Shown here: positions 1 to 5,382 of the stretch, piece after piece | Numbering within the stretch: the first letter of the stretch is position 1 | Layout: the number at the start of each line of letters is the position of its first letter | IMG/VR virus record: IMGVR_UViG_2648501730_000008 | Coordinates: 1 to 5,382 of that record | DNA from: a virus | Taxonomy: Duplodnaviria; Heunggongvirae; Uroviricota; Caudoviricetes | Strand: one strand, 5' to 3' | DNA length: 5,382 nucleotides | Program-made: the position numbers and the translations under genes | Notes under the pieces: generated by a model | Database searches by the model: none | Seen by the model: only the letters and a program-made list of their open reading frames with translations | What the model was told of the DNA's origin: nothing

Positions 1-512
1 TGTGCAGAGGACAGGGGCACCCGGTAAAAGCCGGTGACCGCCATATTGTCCAGGTAAAGGTTCTGACCGTTGCGCCACCAGTCATCCTCACGCTCAAAAT
101 CCGGCATATCAATTCCCGCCAGATGGTATGCATCCCGGAACAGCGTGTAACAGTCCGTCACCCCGTGCTCAAAGCGCCGTCCTGTCAGATGTGGCACACA
201 GCGGAATTTATGAATGTCCCCCCGGCAGACCAGCCACCAGGACAGTGCACTTTTTATCTGCAGCCGCCGGTCGGCCTCGCTCAGCCAGGGCAGACCACCG
301 GGATGACTGTGGACCAGTGCCACAATCTCCCCCTGCATCTCTGCCCGCAGCCAGTCTTCCGGTGCAATACGAAAATACGCCTCCGGCTCTGCAGAAATAT
401 TCACACAAGGGATATACCACTCCCCCTCCGGCGTGCTTATCACGAAGCCGCACGACTCCGCAGGCGCACACCGCCGGGCATGCGCCAGAATCGCTGATTC
501 AGTCTGTGTCAT
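1..512 (-). CDS. K: Tail tip assembly protein K-like (N-terminal MPN/JAMM domain, start of NlpC/P60-like region); ATG at 512..510, 170 codons in window, 3' end truncated by window edge
   Basis: My own translation of the minus strand from ATG 512 gives MTQTESAILAHARRCAPAESCGFVISTPEGEWYIPCVNISAEPEAYFRIAPEDWLRAEMQGEIVALVHSHPGGLPWLSEADRR...GVTDCYTLFRDAYHLAGIDMPDFEREDDWWRNGQNLYLDNMAVTGFYRVPLSSA, open to position 1. It contains an exact JAMM motif H-x-H-x7-S-x2-D (HSHPGGLPWLSEAD) and closely resembles lambda gpK as I recall it. It sits immediately downstream of L, as in lambda. The ORF track missed it because it runs off the window; the 87-aa minus ORF at 208..471 is in a different frame. Confidence 0.9.
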   Translation of the reverse strand, partial: MTQTESAILAHARRCAPAESCGFVISTPEGEWYIPCVNISAEPEAYFRIAPEDWLRAEMQGEIVALVHSHPGGLPWLSEADRRLQIKSALSWWLVCRGDIHKFRCVPHLTGRRFEHGVTDCYTLFRDAYHLAGIDMPDFEREDDWWRNGQNLYLDNMAVTGFYRVPLSSA

Positions 513-522
513 AAACCGGGAT

Positions 523-1221
523 TTACTGCGAAAGTTTATTAATGGAAAGGAAACCGCCAAAATTAGCCACCATGCCGCGCATCTCACACCCGCGCATGCA
601 CTTGCTGCATCTGTCCTTACGGATATCCGTGGTGGGGTTGTCGAACTCATCCGCCACCGCAGGACCGTTATACCCGCATTCATCTCCCCGGTAATCCCAC
701 ATACAGGTGTTCGCCAGCATGATGCGACCGGGAAACAGCGCCCCGTCCGTCTCGGTCGGTGTAGCCAGCACAAACGAGGCCGTCATGGCCGTCAGCTCCG
801 ACATCTGCTCCACCACCCAGCGGTCACTCAGCTCCTGCTCCGGGTCCGCTTCCGGATTGCCCGCAACGAAATTCACCGCATCCAGAAAACGGGCATACAC
901 CCGGCGGCGGACCACCGTGGCCCCCACCAGACTCTGCAGGTCCTCCGCCATCCCGGTGACAAGACCAAACAGATTGGACACCGTCAGCGACGGGCGGGCA
1001 CTGCTGCCCTTCCCGTTCATCTCAAAGCCACTGCCGTCAATCGGGTATGCCTGATACTTACGCCCCTGCCAGGTCACCGGCTCCCCTTTTTCATTCAGCT
1101 CATTACAGAAAAAATACCGCTCACCACCCTGCACCGTCAGGTCAATTTCCCAGAGCACCACCCGCGGTGACTGCTCTGACTTAACCGACTCGTTCAGGCT
1201 TTCTTCGTGAATATCCTGCAT
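523..1221 (-). CDS. L: Minor tail protein L (tail tip complex; gpL family with C-terminal Cys cluster)
   Basis: 232-aa ORF, the same length as lambda gpL, with near-identical stretches as I recall lambda gpL (VVLWEIDLT, GGERYFFCNE.NEKGEPVTWQGR.YQ.YPI, FGGFLSINKLSQ). Its start ATG overlaps the M stop (TGATG). A GGTGGTG Shine-Dalgarno-like element lies about 5 nt upstream. Confidence 0.92.
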   Translation of the reverse strand: MQDIHEESLNESVKSEQSPRVVLWEIDLTVQGGERYFFCNELNEKGEPVTWQGRKYQAYPIDGSGFEMNGKGSSARPSLTVSNLFGLVTGMAEDLQSLVGATVVRRRVYARFLDAVNFVAGNPEADPEQELSDRWVVEQMSELTAMTASFVLATPTETDGALFPGRIMLANTCMWDYRGDECGYNGPAVADEFDNPTTDIRKDRCSKCMRGCEMRGMVANFGGFLSINKLSQ

Positions 1222-1562
1222 CAGTTCACCACCTGCTCAATCGTACAGCTGAAATCACTGTACCGGGCGTTATCCGTGACGCTCCACTCCCGGCACACCA
1301 CCCTCACCGTCCGGTTATGTTTCGGCGGTCGCCACAAAAAGGCACGGTAACCACCATGCCAGGATAAAAATTCATCCAGCCAGCGCCGGGTTGACTCATC
1401 CGTCACCCGGAACACCGCCTGAAACGTCTTCAGTTGAGGATTCAGCCCTGTGGGGCGGCGCTGTTCATAACCGTCACCAAACCGCACCCTCACCACCGAC
1501 GGCTTCTCACTCACCTGCATCCCTTCACGCGGGACCAGATGCAGCGTTTTTATCTCAGCCAC
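1221..1562 (-). CDS. M: Minor tail protein M
   Basis: 113-aa ORF with VRVRFGDGY and C-terminal EQVVN matching lambda gpM (109 aa) as I recall it. It begins at GTG (1562..1560), preceded by GGAGG at 1575..1571 with 8-nt spacing, and overlaps the tape measure stop codon. The position between H and L matches lambda gene order. Confidence 0.88.
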   Translation of the reverse strand: MAEIKTLHLVPREGMQVSEKPSVVRVRFGDGYEQRRPTGLNPQLKTFQAVFRVTDESTRRWLDEFLSWHGGYRAFLWRPPKHNRTVRVVCREWSVTDNARYSDFSCTIEQVVN

Positions 1563-4500
1563 TCAGCATTCCTCCGTCACGTCGCATGGACAGCATCACC
1601 GCCTGCACCCGCTGGTCAATCAGCTGCACAAGACTGCCTGCCGCCTCCGGCCCTATCTGGCCATTAGTCCCGTCATTCTGAATGGCGATATGGTAGACCG
1701 GGGAATACACCAGACCCGCACTGCCGTTCATACTGCCCACCGCGCGCACACCCAGCGAGCCATCCGCCGCCCGGGTCAGGGGCATAATGGCTTCAGGTCC
1801 GGCCTCCCCCATCAGTCCCGCCCCTTTTGCAAAGGCAAAGTACGTGGGCGTATCCACAATACTGTTGCTGTACGCACTCAGGTTTGCCGAGGTATACACG
1901 CCGCCTTTTGCATTGGCCACCGCACCGCCCAGCCAGTCACCAATGCTGCCGAGAAATCCTCCCGCACCGGACATACCGTTTGCCGCCGTCTTAATTCCGT
2001 TGACAATCGCGGCATTCATAAGAACTTTTGATATTTCCTGCAGCACTGATGAGGCCCAGCTGCGCCATTCCACTTTATTTCCGTTCAGCATCTCCGTGAT
2101 GTTATTCACCATCCCTGAGATACCCTCCGTCGCAAGCTGTGCTGCCTGTGAGGCGTAATCGGACGCATTATCCACCCAGTTACTGAATCCCTCCTGCAGC
2201 CCTTTCTGCCAGTCCGCACGCTGCACATCCGATTCGGCATAAAAAGCTTCCTGGTCTTTAAGGCGTTCACTCAGATACTGCGCGTTCTGTGCCAGAGCCT
2301 GTCTGTAAAAATCCTCACTGATATCCCCGGTCTGATACTGAGACTGAAGGTCCGCATCCTTCTGGCGGAAGCTGTCGCGGATCTGCTGCAACTCCCGCAT
2401 GCGTTCTCTGGCTCGCTCCCCCTGCCCGTACCCCAGCAGTTCAGCATCATTCGACGCACGCGCAGCCGCATTCTCATTCTTCAGTGTCTCTTCCCGGGAT
2501 CGCAACTGTTCCCGGATTTTTTGCTGGTCAATCAGGGCCGCATTACGCAGCAGTTCCTGCTTCTGCATCTCCGTCAGGGTTTTCAGTTCGCCCTGCGCAG
2601 TCTGGTATTTCAGCTTCGCCAGCTCTGTATTCTGCCCCACCAGTGCCAGTTGCTCTTTCTGCTGCTTCAGCAGCCGGGAAAAACTGTCTTCCGCTTTTTC
2701 CGTCTCTGATTTTCCACCCCGGGATTTGGGTTTATTCGCCTCGTTATTGCGCCAGGCTTCCAGGGCATTACTGATATAACGCTGTCTCGCCTCCTGATAC
2801 GGATCACCCACAAAACCGAGGTCATCCGCCGCATACCCCAGCCGGACACGCTCTTTTTCTTCCCCTTTCAGTCTGGACAGGGCCAGCTCACGCTCTGTTT
2901 TTGTCAGGGCACTCTGCTGTTTATCATCCAGGGTGGCCTGTGGCAGCCGTAACGGTACATTCACCAGTCCCTGACGCTGCTGAAGCAGTTCATTCCCCAG
3001 CCCCAGCAGACGGTTGAATTCCGTATGCTGACCGTTCATAACCAGCATGGACTGGTACACCTTATTCTGCTCTGCCGCCTGCTGACGAATTAACGCCACA
3101 CGACGGTCTTCCAGCCCGGCAAGCACATCCTGAATGGACTGCGCTTTTTCCTGCATCTGTGCCAGACGGGACTGCTCAACGGCAAGCTGCTCTGTTGCCT
3201 GAGCAAGCCCTTCCGTTACGGTCTTCACCGAGGTCAGATGGTTTATCATGAATCCGTCACCGGTCGTCCAGCCCGGGTTCGCCAGAACATACTGATATCC
3301 TGCGATTTTTTCCTGCAGGGATTTCACCCGACTGGCCTGTTCATCAATCAGCCGGTTCTGCTCTGTCAGCGCCGCCCGTGTTCGTCCTTCATTATCTGAG
3401 GCTTCAGGCAAAGACATTGACGGCGTTTTATGCGCGATTTCATCTATCGTCAGTGCATACTGGCGCGCAGACTCCCTGGCCTGCTCCTGATTCTGGTACA
3501 GCGTATACCATGCTGCAGCCCCCAGCATCACCAGTCCGGGTACGCCACCAACCAGCCCCAACGCACCACTCATCAGACGTGAGCCCACCGCCGTTGTACT
3601 GTTCAGCGCATTCTGGGCGGCGCTTCTGGCAGCAATATTTCTGTTCAGGCGTTCCTGTGTGGCCGCCAGACGGGCCTCTGCAGCAATCTGCATCTCCGTC
3701 CCGCGGGCTGCCGCCACGGCCTGCTGAGCACGGTACACGGCTGCCCTTGCCCGCGCCGTGGCAATCTGCGTTCCCCTGAACTGTGCTTCCGCCAGTGCAA
3801 CTTCATTACGTGCAGCCGTCACAAGTCCTGCCGTGGCAGACATCGCTCCGGAGGCCATATTGCCAAAGTACCGGGCAACCCCGACGGCAACCAGCGCACC
3901 CACAGCTGTTGCCACATTATCAATCTGTCCGGCAACACCGTTCAGCACGCCGGAGAGCGTTTTTGTCACCCCGCTGGCCTCATTCGCACCGCCCACCCAG
4001 GCCATAAAGGCGTTTTCCACCTTCGTGATACCACCAGAAACCGTTTCCGGCATGGCGGCATATTCATCACGCAATACCCCCAGCTGGCTGATTAACGCAG
4101 GAACGACTTTATCCGCCGTCAGTTGACCATCGTCCGCCATCGCCTTCAGATCTTTACGGGCCACGCCCATGCCTGCAGCCAGTGCACGAATGATCCGGTC
4201 ACCACTTTCATTGACCGAATTAAATTCCTCACCGCGCAACACACCCTGTGCCAGCGCCTGGCTGAACTGGGTGATCACCGAACCCGCCTCAGCCGTACTG
4301 GCACCGGAGATTTTCAGCCCCGTGGAAATGGCCTCCGTCACCTTCAGCACATCATCAGCACTGTAACCATATTCACGCATCGAGGCAGCCGAACGGGCAA
4401 ACAGGGCCGCATTATCCGAAAAAGCGGTACCTGTCCGCTGGCTGATATCCATCAGCACTTTCTGTGATGACGAAAATTCATCAGATGACTGCGACGCCTG

Positions 4501-4797
4501 TTTCAGACGGGCATTCACGGAACTCCACTCATCAGCCAGTGAAATCAGGTGTCCGGTGGCAAAGGCACCGGCAAATGCGCCAGCCATTCCGACAGCCGAA
4601 GCGCGGATTTCCGTCAACTGGCTGTTCAGTTCTGCCAGGGCACGTCGCTGCTCCCGGGCTGCCGCAGCGGCCTGACGCCCGCCATTCTGCAGGGTCCGGT
4701 AATATTCACTGCCCATACGGGAAGCACGCTGGAGCTCCGACTGGAATGACTGTGAATTTGCCGAAATTTTGATAATCAGTTCACGTAACGTCGCCAT
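1555..4797 (-). CDS. H: Tail tape measure protein (lambda gpH-like C-terminal region; Gly/Ala-rich hydrophobic segments and long coiled-coil-like middle)
   Basis: 1080-aa ORF, the longest in the window, located between the G-T chaperone pair and M. The C-terminal ~215 aa (NWVDNASDYASQ...NDGTNGQIGP...RRDGGMLSG) resembles the lambda gpH C-terminus as I recall it. The sequence is Ala/Gln/Glu/Arg-rich, typical of tape measure proteins. ATG at 4797..4795 is preceded by a GGAGAAAGG ribosome binding site. Confidence 0.95.
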   Translation of the reverse strand: MATLRELIIKISANSQSFQSELQRASRMGSEYYRTLQNGGRQAAAAAREQRRALAELNSQLTEIRASAVGMAGAFAGAFATGHLISLADEWSSVNARLKQASQSSDEFSSSQKVLMDISQRTGTAFSDNAALFARSAASMREYGYSADDVLKVTEAISTGLKISGASTAEAGSVITQFSQALAQGVLRGEEFNSVNESGDRIIRALAAGMGVARKDLKAMADDGQLTADKVVPALISQLGVLRDEYAAMPETVSGGITKVENAFMAWVGGANEASGVTKTLSGVLNGVAGQIDNVATAVGALVAVGVARYFGNMASGAMSATAGLVTAARNEVALAEAQFRGTQIATARARAAVYRAQQAVAAARGTEMQIAAEARLAATQERLNRNIAARSAAQNALNSTTAVGSRLMSGALGLVGGVPGLVMLGAAAWYTLYQNQEQARESARQYALTIDEIAHKTPSMSLPEASDNEGRTRAALTEQNRLIDEQASRVKSLQEKIAGYQYVLANPGWTTGDGFMINHLTSVKTVTEGLAQATEQLAVEQSRLAQMQEKAQSIQDVLAGLEDRRVALIRQQAAEQNKVYQSMLVMNGQHTEFNRLLGLGNELLQQRQGLVNVPLRLPQATLDDKQQSALTKTERELALSRLKGEEKERVRLGYAADDLGFVGDPYQEARQRYISNALEAWRNNEANKPKSRGGKSETEKAEDSFSRLLKQQKEQLALVGQNTELAKLKYQTAQGELKTLTEMQKQELLRNAALIDQQKIREQLRSREETLKNENAAARASNDAELLGYGQGERARERMRELQQIRDSFRQKDADLQSQYQTGDISEDFYRQALAQNAQYLSERLKDQEAFYAESDVQRADWQKGLQEGFSNWVDNASDYASQAAQLATEGISGMVNNITEMLNGNKVEWRSWASSVLQEISKVLMNAAIVNGIKTAANGMSGAGGFLGSIGDWLGGAVANAKGGVYTSANLSAYSNSIVDTPTYFAFAKGAGLMGEAGPEAIMPLTRAADGSLGVRAVGSMNGSAGLVYSPVYHIAIQNDGTNGQIGPEAAGSLVQLIDQRVQAVMLSMRRDGGMLSG
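1571..1575 (-). promoter_or_regulatory. Shine-Dalgarno element (GGAGG) for M, embedded in the 3' end of the tape measure gene
   Basis: The minus strand reads GACGGAGGAATGCTGAGTGGCTGAG: GGAGG, then 8 nt, then the GTG start of M. The H stop TGA (1557..1555) lies inside the second and third codons of M. Confidence 0.5.
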
Positions 4798-4800
4798 TCA

Positions 4801-4809
4801 CCTTTCTCC
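4801..4809 (-). promoter_or_regulatory. Shine-Dalgarno / ribosome binding site for the tape measure gene (GGAGAAAGG, 3 nt before the ATG)
   Basis: The minus strand reads CCCGGAGAAAGGTGAATGGCG, with ATG at 4797..4795. Confidence 0.55.
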
Positions 4810-4815
4810 GGGCGT

Positions 4816-4836
4816 AAAAAAACCGCCTCAGCGGTT
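4816..4836 (-). terminator. Short hairpin (6-bp stem AACCGC/GCGGTT, 4-nt loop) followed by a 7-U tract, oriented with the operon; candidate weak intrinsic terminator or attenuator between T and H
   Basis: The minus strand reads GAACCGCTGAGGCGGTTTTTTTACGCC, directly after the T stop (TGA 4847..4845) and before the H ribosome binding site. The stem is short, so any termination is probably partial. Confidence 0.3.
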
Positions 4837-4844
4837 CTCATCAT

Positions 4845-5153
4845 TCATGACTGTGCTGCAAGGCTCAGCGCGTCTTCCAGCGCCGCAAACGGATCCACCT
4901 CCGGCTTATCCTCATCCTCGCCCCAGCAGAGCATGGCGTCCTCCAGTGAAACATTCATCCCCTGCGCCCCGAAAACCGCTTTCACGATCTGCGCATTACG
5001 GATATCCCCGCGCTCATCACCCAGCGGGGACACCCTGTCAAACTCCATCCACATCATCGCCTCGCTCGCACTCAGACTGTGCCCCAGTTCGGATAAGGTG
5101 CGCCCCAGACGGAGCGCAAGTCGCATCAGAAAGAGAATTTCCGGGCGGGCTAC
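4845..5153 (-). CDS. T: T-like -1 frame extension of the tail assembly chaperone (C-terminal part of the G-T fusion); not an independent gene
   Basis: The frame is open from the slippery site (first post-shift codon GTA at 5153..5151) to TGA at 4847..4845. It is -1 relative to the G-like ORF. There is no Shine-Dalgarno element ahead of the internal ATG at 5126. It sits immediately upstream of the tape measure gene, as lambda T does. Confidence 0.8.
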   Translation of the reverse strand, partial: VARPEILFLMRLALRLGRTLSELGHSLSASEAMMWMEFDRVSPLGDERGDIRNAQIVKAVFGAQGMNVSLEDAMLCWGEDEDKPEVDPFAALEDALSLAAQS

Positions 5154-5382
5154 TTTTTTCTGGCCGACTCTGCATCAGCGATCAGTTCCAGTGCCTGACG
5201 CAGCAACCGGGCATGTACCGGACCATAGACGGCCAGCACCTGCTCACGGTCGTCCGGAGTGAACACCCGCTGCAGATCAGTATCAAACAGGACATCGCAG
5301 AACAGCGTCACATCCGCTTCCAGGTTACGGCGGGTTTTCGCCACCACCGACAGGGTATCGTCATCCTCTCCATCACCATTGA
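5150..5382 (-). CDS. G: G-like tail assembly chaperone, 5' partial (start lies beyond the window end)
   Basis: The frame is open from the window edge (...NGDGEDDDTLSVVAKTRRNLEADVTLFCDVLFDTDLQRVFTPDDREQVLAVYGPVHARLLRQALELIADAESARKK*). The GTG at 5347 used by the ORF track is internal. The ORF ends in the slippery heptamer plus TAG and lies directly upstream of the T-like ORF and H, the canonical G / G-T / tape measure arrangement. Its sequence does not obviously match lambda gpG from memory, so the call rests on synteny and the recoding signal. Confidence 0.75.
   Translation of the reverse strand, partial: NGDGEDDDTLSVVAKTRRNLEADVTLFCDVLFDTDLQRVFTPDDREQVLAVYGPVHARLLRQALELIADAESARKK
5153..5159 (-). 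other. Programmed -1 ribosomal frameshift slippery heptamer A_AAA_AAG, immediately followed by the G-frame stop TAG
   Basis: The minus strand reads TCG GCC AGA AAA AAG TAG in the G frame. After a -1 slip the reading continues AAA AAA GTA GCC CGC CCG GAA ATT CTC TTT CTG ATG CGA..., which is the 93-aa ORF frame. Confidence 0.75.

Follow-up and report, generated by a model that had tools for sequence, protein, structure and literature searches.

A tail tape measure gene of the HK97 gp16 type beside lambda-type tail tip genes in a lambdoid siphovirus

We analyzed a stretch of 5,382 nucleotides from a tailed virus of the Caudoviricetes (IMG/VR record IMGVR_UViG_2648501730_000008, positions 1 to 5,382), referred to below as the window, and in particular the long open reading frame (ORF) that takes up most of it. 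In the order of transcription the window holds the 3' end of G, the T extension, the gene for a tail tape measure protein (TMP), M and L, each with a match to a known family. The GC skew is negative throughout, which fits the placement of all genes on the minus strand. The long ORF starts with ATG and encodes 1080 amino acids; its domains and segments, with the bit scores and cutoffs of the matches, are as follows.

1555..4797, minus strand: tail tape measure protein gene, HK97 gp16 type, 1080 amino acids (ORF, PHROG 339, alignment to HK97 gp16)
3982..4551, minus strand: conserved N-terminal domain PF20155 (TMP_3), TMP residues 83-272 (195.1 bits, cutoff 41)
Minus strand, TMP residues 157-231: TIGR02675 (80.3 bits, cutoff 21.35)
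2740..3615, minus strand: PF06120 (Phage_HK97_TLTM), TMP residues 395-686 (304.1 bits, cutoff 24; profile positions 1-292 of 295)
1669..2625, minus strand: TIGR01541 (tape_meas_lam_C), TMP residues 725-1043 (241.7 bits, cutoff 104.75)
Minus strand, TMP residues 862-933: PF09718, inside the lambda-family C-terminal domain (Pfam match)
1888..1992, minus strand: glycine-rich stretch, TMP residues 936-970, 29% glycine (composition and alignment)
1693..1917, minus strand: GEAGPEAIMPLTRAADGSLGV block, TMP residues 961-1035, common to HK97-type and the otherwise unrelated SPF_0923-type TMPs, absent from lambda
1558..1692, minus strand: lambda-like terminal segment, TMP residues 1036-1080 (42% identity to lambda gpH 806-850)

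The tape measure gene and the affinities of its segments

The assignment to the HK97 gp16 family follows from several comparisons. PHROG 339 is the single PHROG matched, with TMP residues 1-1079 covering positions 3-1116 of a profile of 1123. BLASTP against HK97 gp16 (NP_037710, 1089 amino acids) gives one collinear high-scoring segment pair that joins residues 1-1076 to 1-1079 at 53% identity. The matches to PF20155, PF06120 and PF09718 in Pfam and to TIGR02675 and TIGR01541 in NCBIfam all lie far above cutoff, and the set found in HK97 gp16 is identical, with its TIGR01541 domain at 736-1042. HK97 gp16 therefore shares with the window TMP its collinearity and nearly its length, as well as HK97-like G and T genes upstream; it differs in the middle (residues 301-690 of the window TMP), which is only 26-45% identical, and in the last 45 residues, which are unrelated. 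The strongest hydrophobic segment inside PF06120 (residues 407-433, window 3499-3579, Kyte-Doolittle peak 1.73) has a conserved counterpart in HK97 gp16 at residues 424-448, and further hydrophobic segments lie at residues 69-87 and 287-313 of the window TMP. An embedded enzymatic domain, for which a check had been proposed earlier, was not found: neither Pfam nor NCBIfam gave a match to any enzymatic family (lysozyme, peptidase and transglycosylase included) in the window TMP at E <= 0.1.

An earlier reading of this DNA, made without database searches (the sequence-only reading), had described the protein as mosaic, with a C-terminus of about 215 residues that aligns well with lambda gpH. Its ORF of 1080 amino acids, about 27% longer than lambda gpH (853 amino acids; PDB 8iyk chain H), is confirmed, its conversions between nucleotides and residues are correct, and the motifs that it quoted are all present (GVLRGEEFNSVNESGDRIIRALAAGMG at residues 185-211, SNWVDNASDYASQ at about 872-884, and NDGTNGQIGP and RDGGMLSG at the C-terminus). 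The likeness to lambda is indeed limited to the C-terminal third, but it spans about 350 residues rather than 215 and does not align well. BLASTP joins only residues 477-850 of gpH to 733-1080 of the window TMP, at 27% identity, and phmmer joins 498-850 of 8iyk_H to 745-1080; the TIGR01541 match at residues 725-1043 likewise puts the lambda-related region at about 350 residues. The only strikingly lambda-like stretches are NDGTNGQIGP and the terminal RDGG-x-x-SG. Residues 1-730 of the window TMP give no significant BLASTP segment pair with lambda gpH, and PF06791 (TMP_2), the N-terminal domain of gpH (233.6 bits there), has no match in the window TMP at E <= 0.1. There is no full-length collinear alignment to lambda gpH; the full-length collinearity is with HK97 gp16. 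Lambda gpH shares with the window TMP the TIGR01541 and PF09718 matches, the glycine-rich stretch, NDGTNGQIGP, the terminal helix that docks on gpI, and the position of its gene before M-L-K-I-J. It differs in its N-terminal PF06791 domain, in being 227 residues shorter, and in the unrelated sequence that takes the place of the 961-1035 block.

Lambda gpH is cleaved to gpH* in its glycine-rich region (PMC12617516). Residues 936-970 of the window TMP occupy the aligned position, and a cleavage there is possible, judged from that position.

The affinities of the protein differ from one segment to the next, as shown by the following percent identities (Kp1LV is Klebsiella phage 1 LV-2017, locus L003).

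Residues 1-300: HK97 81%, Kp1LV 77%, PhiR49_2 85%, SPF_0923 21%, lambda 18%
Residues 451-690: HK97 26%, Kp1LV 70%, PhiR49_2 85%, SPF_0923 18%, lambda 16%
Residues 691-900: HK97 58%, Kp1LV 47%, PhiR49_2 56%, SPF_0923 24%, lambda 23%
Residues 961-1035: HK97 65%, Kp1LV 67%, PhiR49_2 91%, SPF_0923 69%, lambda 25% (forced alignment)
Residues 1036-1080: HK97 27%, Kp1LV 29%, PhiR49_2 56%, SPF_0923 64%, lambda 42%

At 1077 amino acids the TMP of Salmonella phage SPF_0923 and Escherichia phage 613R10 nearly equals the window TMP in length, lambda-type tip genes accompany it, and its last 120 or so residues are 64-69% identical to ours; its body, however, consists of PF06791 and PF24622 (TMP_2/TMP_4) and is only about 20% identical over residues 1-960. 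At the DNA level, likeness to HK97 comes in patches from window position 1734 up to 5132, and likeness to lambda (79.5%) covers window 1-1240, that is, L and the start of K, with an abrupt onset at the M/L boundary. Fourfold-degenerate third positions of conserved codons are only 24-40% identical in all segments to HK97, Kp1LV, SPF_0923 and lambda, and are thus saturated; such dating shows only that the exchanges are old and the N-terminus constrained, the ages of the individual segments being indistinguishable. Because these sites are saturated against all the distant relatives, the combinations of modules must be old. For the same reason the 81% protein identity of residues 1-300 to HK97, where fourfold sites are 29% identical, points to strong purifying selection and not to recent transfer. 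In the reading that we prefer, the gene is an old patchwork, with an HK97-type body and with a terminal docking helix and downstream tip genes of the lambda type.

The terminal segment and the flanking genes

Residues 1036-1080 show no homologous alignment to the end of HK97 gp16. A tblastn search of phage records with the last 60 amino acids retrieves the protein's own clade, then SPF_0923, 613R10 and PhiR49_2, and then lambda-type TMPs (lambda, 434, Fels-1), and no HK97-type TMP. In lambda, the C-terminal three-helix coiled coil of gpH (818-842/849) sits on the tripod of the gpI trimer inside the tip, and it is the sole well-resolved part of gpH in the tip complex (PMC10721106, PMC12617516). 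Since this docking helix (gpH 818-849) aligns with residues 1048-1079 or so of the window TMP, the lambda-like terminal segment would be the part that must fit a lambda-type tip. The genes on either side of the TMP gene are listed below.

5150..5382, minus strand: tail assembly chaperone G, 3' part, running off the window (PF06222, 97 bits)
4845..5159, minus strand: -1 frame T extension with slippery heptamer (PF06223 Phage_tail_T, 70 bits)
1221..1562, minus strand: minor (distal) tail protein M, GTG start (PF05939, 101 bits)
523..1221, minus strand: tail tip protein L, lambda type (TIGR01600, 378 bits; PF05100)

The flanking genes upstream and downstream of the TMP gene have different affinities. 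Upstream, the part of G in the window is identical to HK97 gp13 at 44 of 73 positions (60%) and shows no similarity to lambda, and T is HK97-like as well. Downstream, M is 45% identical to lambda M and 34% to HK97 M, and L is 77% identical to lambda L and 34% to HK97 L. The next genes can be read in phage BP-4795 (97% identity to the window) and continue this pattern: identity to the lambda counterparts is 86% for K and 68% for I, and to those of HK97 about 35% for both. Over this whole tip region, then, HK97 (M and L, and K and I by way of BP-4795) is about 35% identical to the lambda-type genes of the window kind. The GTG start of M overlaps the TMP stop by 8 nucleotides at 1555-1562 (GTGGCTGA), and the last base of the M stop codon is also the first of the L start codon (TGATG at 1221). 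These overlaps amount to tight translational coupling, and the same arrangement is annotated in BP-4795.

We then asked how the terminal segment varies with its neighbors, using Mantel tests on pairwise identities across 16 non-redundant phages. Similarity in the last 45 residues follows that of the tip proteins (r = 0.84 for M, 0.79 for I and 0.75 for L; permutation p 0.0002) more than that of the N-terminal 300 amino acids (0.19) or the middle (0.57). The block just before it (-120 to -46) behaves differently, with r = 0.31 for M, 0.26 for I, 0.24 for L, 0.37 for the N-terminal 300 amino acids and 0.62 for the middle. Similarity in the GEAGPEAIMPLTRAADGSLGV block (961-1035) thus goes with the TMP body (middle, 0.62) rather than with the tip proteins (0.24-0.31). 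When one genome per species was scanned, 20 HK97-type TMP loci came up, from Enterobacter, Symbiopectobacterium, Klebsiella, Leclercia, Pantoea, Serratia, Brenneria and Pseudomonas; their N-termini are near-invariant, whereas their C-terminal ends belong to six or more unrelated types. Four loci (L095, L097, L104 and L003, the last being Klebsiella phage 1 LV-2017) have HK97-type bodies with a third kind of C-terminal end, ...NNPQKKFGRAIYSNLQSKKPR, and no homologs of M, L or I were detected in the 5.5 kb downstream of their TMP genes. Evidently, to judge from these sequences, an HK97-type body can also serve a tip that is neither of the lambda nor of the HK97 kind.

The last 45 or so codons therefore appear to behave as part of the tip module, which is the only mildly new point to emerge from this locus. 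It agrees with the lambda cryo-EM structures that place this helix on the gpI plug. It is tempting to go further and to place the boundary between shaft and tip modules about 45 codons inside the TMP gene, with the terminal helix inherited together with M, L, K and I on at least three unrelated bodies, as a general rule by which TMPs would stay compatible with the plug of the tip as bodies and tips are reshuffled. We consider the chances of so general a rule to be evenly balanced.

The conservation of the opposite end of the protein is a separate observation. TMP residues 1-20 (window 4738-4797; MATLRELIIKISANSQSFQ) are near-invariant in HK97-type TMPs of many enterobacterial genera (loci L091-L110), and in a Pseudomonas HK97-type TMP the first 20 or so residues are still recognizable as TLRSLIVSVSAETSAYQ. 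This stretch is much more conserved than the remainder of the protein, which suggests a binding site at the head-proximal end, perhaps for a chaperone or the tail terminator.

The upstream region has two further features. Directly ahead of the TAG that ends G (5152-5150), on the minus strand, lies a slippery heptamer, A AAA AAG (5159-5153). From 5153 the -1 frame can be read as far as a stop at 4845, and its uninterrupted translation (VARPEILFLMRLAL...) leads into the T domain. A -1 frameshift is annotated at the same place in HK97. The heptamer is, by sequence, the expected site of the programmed frameshift that yields G and G-T, and the ATG-started T ORF of 93 amino acids is probably not a real product on its own. 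In the gap from the T stop (4845) to the TMP start (4797), a GC-rich hairpin with seven T's after it (AACCGC-TGAG-GCGGTT, 4816-4836, minus strand) was found by direct folding (free energy -10.8 kcal/mol, z -2.8), though it was absent from the output of a consensus terminator scan of the window. At this spot HK97 has another hairpin and T-run, which terminate the gp15 superinfection-exclusion moron located between T and the TMP gene; the window has a hairpin without the moron. Hybrids that carry the tube and TMP genes of HK022 escape exclusion by HK97 gp15 (PMC10461980).

Tail length and proposed mechanism

The sequence-only reading had predicted a tail about a quarter longer than that of lambda, and a close relative bears this out. 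The TMP of phage Lys8385Vzw (MT225100) also has 1080 amino acids and is identical to the window TMP at 1060 of 1080 positions without a gap. For the whole lambda tail the usual figure is about 150 nm. The non-contractile tail of Lys8385Vzw measured 188.4 nm (PMC6986202), compared with about 134 nm for the lambda tail tube of 32 rings at 42 Å each (PMC10721106). In phage JBD30 a TMP of 1158 amino acids goes with a tail of 180 nm and 45 discs (PMC11445458), which is on the same scale of about 0.15-0.16 nm of tail per TMP residue. We found no measured length for the HK97 tail in the literature searched. TMP length is reported to set tail length (Katsura and Hendrix 1984, as cited in PMC5099701), and the 188.4-nm tail that accompanies a 98%-identical TMP gives indirect support, by analogy, that the window TMP would do so as well.

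The mechanism that we propose is drawn from lambda, HK97 and other siphophages, while the identity, family, context and segment affinities of the gene come from the comparisons presented here. The TMP would be kept soluble by the G and G-T chaperones, G-T arising from the -1 frameshift just upstream, as these chaperones are reported to be made (Xu et al. 2004, as cited in PMC5099701). As a helix, the last 45 or so residues would dock on the gpI plug within a lambda-type tip composed of M, L, K, I and J. Tube subunits would then polymerize around the extended, mostly helical TMP until its N-terminal end is reached, and the tail would thereby be fixed at presumably about 40 rings, or some 170-190 nm. 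A largely extended helical protein of this kind is unresolved in every virion structure (PMC12617516, PMC10721106, PMC11445458). On infection the TMP would be expelled through the opened tip, and the hydrophobic segments at 69-87, 287-313 and 407-433 might insert into the membrane and help form a channel for DNA across the envelope. Lambda gpH* is expelled and forms a channel that spans the periplasm (PMC12617516). For the window TMP the formation of such a channel probably needs an inner-membrane sugar transporter, as PtsG serves HK97 and ManYZ serves lambda; DNA injection by HK97 needs PtsG and FkpA (PMC5099701).

Distribution, alternative readings and significance

A tblastn search with the window TMP against 50,697 phage records finds 93 that match it along all 1080 residues with an identity of 95% or more; BP-4795, Stx2 phage 1717 and dozens of Stx1a and Stx2 prophages are among them and carry the annotation of tail tape measure protein. 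The gene is also found in 1242 of 5426 complete Escherichia coli genomes (coverage of 80% or above), in up to eight places per genome. Given these numbers, the gene counts as known and as very common, and it has been recorded, along with its family and the longer tail, for essentially identical phages. The full 5.4 kb of the window are 97-98% identical in DNA to records of the BP-4795 and 1717 kind. The TMPs of BP-4795 (YP_001449304), 1717 and Lys8385Vzw (QIW91686) resemble the window TMP in length (1080 amino acids), sequence (98-99% identity) and neighborhood, and differ from it only by scattered substitutions and patchy divergence of the DNA. Against BP-4795 (L005) the DNA identity is about 99-100% in 1500-3900 and 89-96% in 3900-4950; against Lys8385Vzw (L010) the pattern is roughly the reverse, 100% in 4050-4800 and 92-97% in 2400-4050. 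Such alternating blocks look like recent, gene-conversion-like exchange between co-resident lambdoid prophages, and they are consistent with recombination among the several related prophages that a genome may hold. Truncated TMP frames occur in Leclercia adecarboxylata (L096, 728 residues), Brenneria salicis (L102, 865 residues) and Candidatus Symbiopectobacterium endolongispinus (L105, 467 residues); unlike the intact gene of the window, these are probably genes of decaying prophages.

How should the composite nature of the gene be read? The sequence-only reading saw a novel chimera, in which a lambda gpH C-terminus is joined to a tape measure core of the TP901/P2 type at about residues 90-270. 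Besides the restriction of the lambda similarity to the C-terminal third, faint matches of residues 83-272 to two TP901 models speak for it: TIGR01760 reaches 28.3 bits (E 8.6e-7; cutoff 28.8) over positions 17-107 of 349, about a quarter of the profile, and PF10145 (PhageMin_Tail) reaches 24.9 bits (cutoff 33.2). Both stay below their curated cutoffs, TIGR01760 has no match when searched with the whole window TMP, and the block itself belongs to PF20155/TIGR02675. As positive controls, the true members P2 gpT and the TP901-1 TMP match the full TIGR01760 profile with 356.8 and 270 bits, and BLASTP of the N-terminal 366 residues of the window TMP against either gives E > 1. P2 gpT and the TP901-1 TMP thus resemble the window TMP in general role and in a faint likeness to the start of the TIGR01760 core; at most a very remote relationship of residues 83-272 to that core is suggested by sequence. 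Moreover, collinearity with HK97 gp16 extends over the whole protein, and HK97 gp16 itself bears the lambda C-terminal domain; with fourfold sites saturated in each segment relative to both lambda and HK97, no recent joining has taken place. A novel chimera of this kind is therefore extremely improbable. Mosaicism as such is real, but it is ancient and has other boundaries; the architecture of the protein is the standard one of HK97 gp16, already deposited many times. A view without any mosaicism, in which the gene descended vertically from an HK97 gp16 ancestor and its uneven identity reflects uneven constraint only, accords with the saturation of synonymous sites in all segments against HK97, Kp1LV, SPF_0923 and lambda, and constraint does explain the 81% identity of the N-terminus. 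It has difficulty with the conflicting rankings of the segments (residues 451-690 are 70% identical to Kp1LV and 26% to HK97, residues 691-900 are 58% identical to HK97 and 47% to Kp1LV), with the 64-69% identity of the last 120 residues to SPF_0923, whose body is of other Pfam families, with the terminal 60 amino acids, which find lambda-type but no HK97-type TMPs, and with the alternating blocks of 89-100% DNA identity among close relatives. We regard descent of this simple kind as quite improbable.

A gene found in as many as eight copies per genome might also be a non-functional relic of a defective (cryptic) prophage, as lambdoid prophages of E. coli often are, and the window is not long enough to judge whether its prophage is intact. 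On the other hand, all five ORFs of the window are intact and tightly coupled, the TMP equals without a gap the length of that of Lys8385Vzw, an inducible phage imaged by electron microscopy, and it contrasts with the clearly truncated versions found in other species; a relic is thus unlikely. Several points weigh against the reading that we prefer, that of an intact tape measure gene with an old patchwork structure. The case for this exact sequence is built on comparison rather than experiment, and 5.4 kb are too short to judge inducibility as well as completeness. Position is the whole basis for a cleavage at the glycine-rich stretch. Because residues 451-690 are only 26% identical to HK97, the host factor required may differ from PtsG and FkpA. 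The 16 phages compared are phylogenetically non-independent, and two or three clearly distinct tip classes drive the co-variation. At one IMG/VR locus (L088), moreover, the TMP end and M are of the window type (98-100%) while L and I are 98% identical to lambda, so that the closest companion of the terminal segment may be M and not gpI, as the Mantel values (0.84 and 0.79) suggest as well. The same locus points to a second junction of recombination, at the M/L boundary, where the M stop and L start overlap by 1 nucleotide; the IMG/VR scan took in the best 80 of 560 relatives, all from the window's own clade, and is not an independent test. With these points taken into account, we are still highly confident that the ORF encodes the intact, tail length-setting TMP of a lambdoid siphovirus prophage like BP-4795, 1717 and Lys8385Vzw, a member of the HK97 gp16 family with the proposed mechanism and the old patchwork structure described above.

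As a discovery the TMP gene carries little weight, and the behavior of its last 45 or so residues as part of the tip module is a modestly useful by-product. If that behavior is general, it would explain why a recombination junction is located inside the TMP gene. It would also supply a practical rule for engineering and annotating hybrid siphophage tails, namely that the terminal helix of the TMP is to be swapped together with the tip genes.

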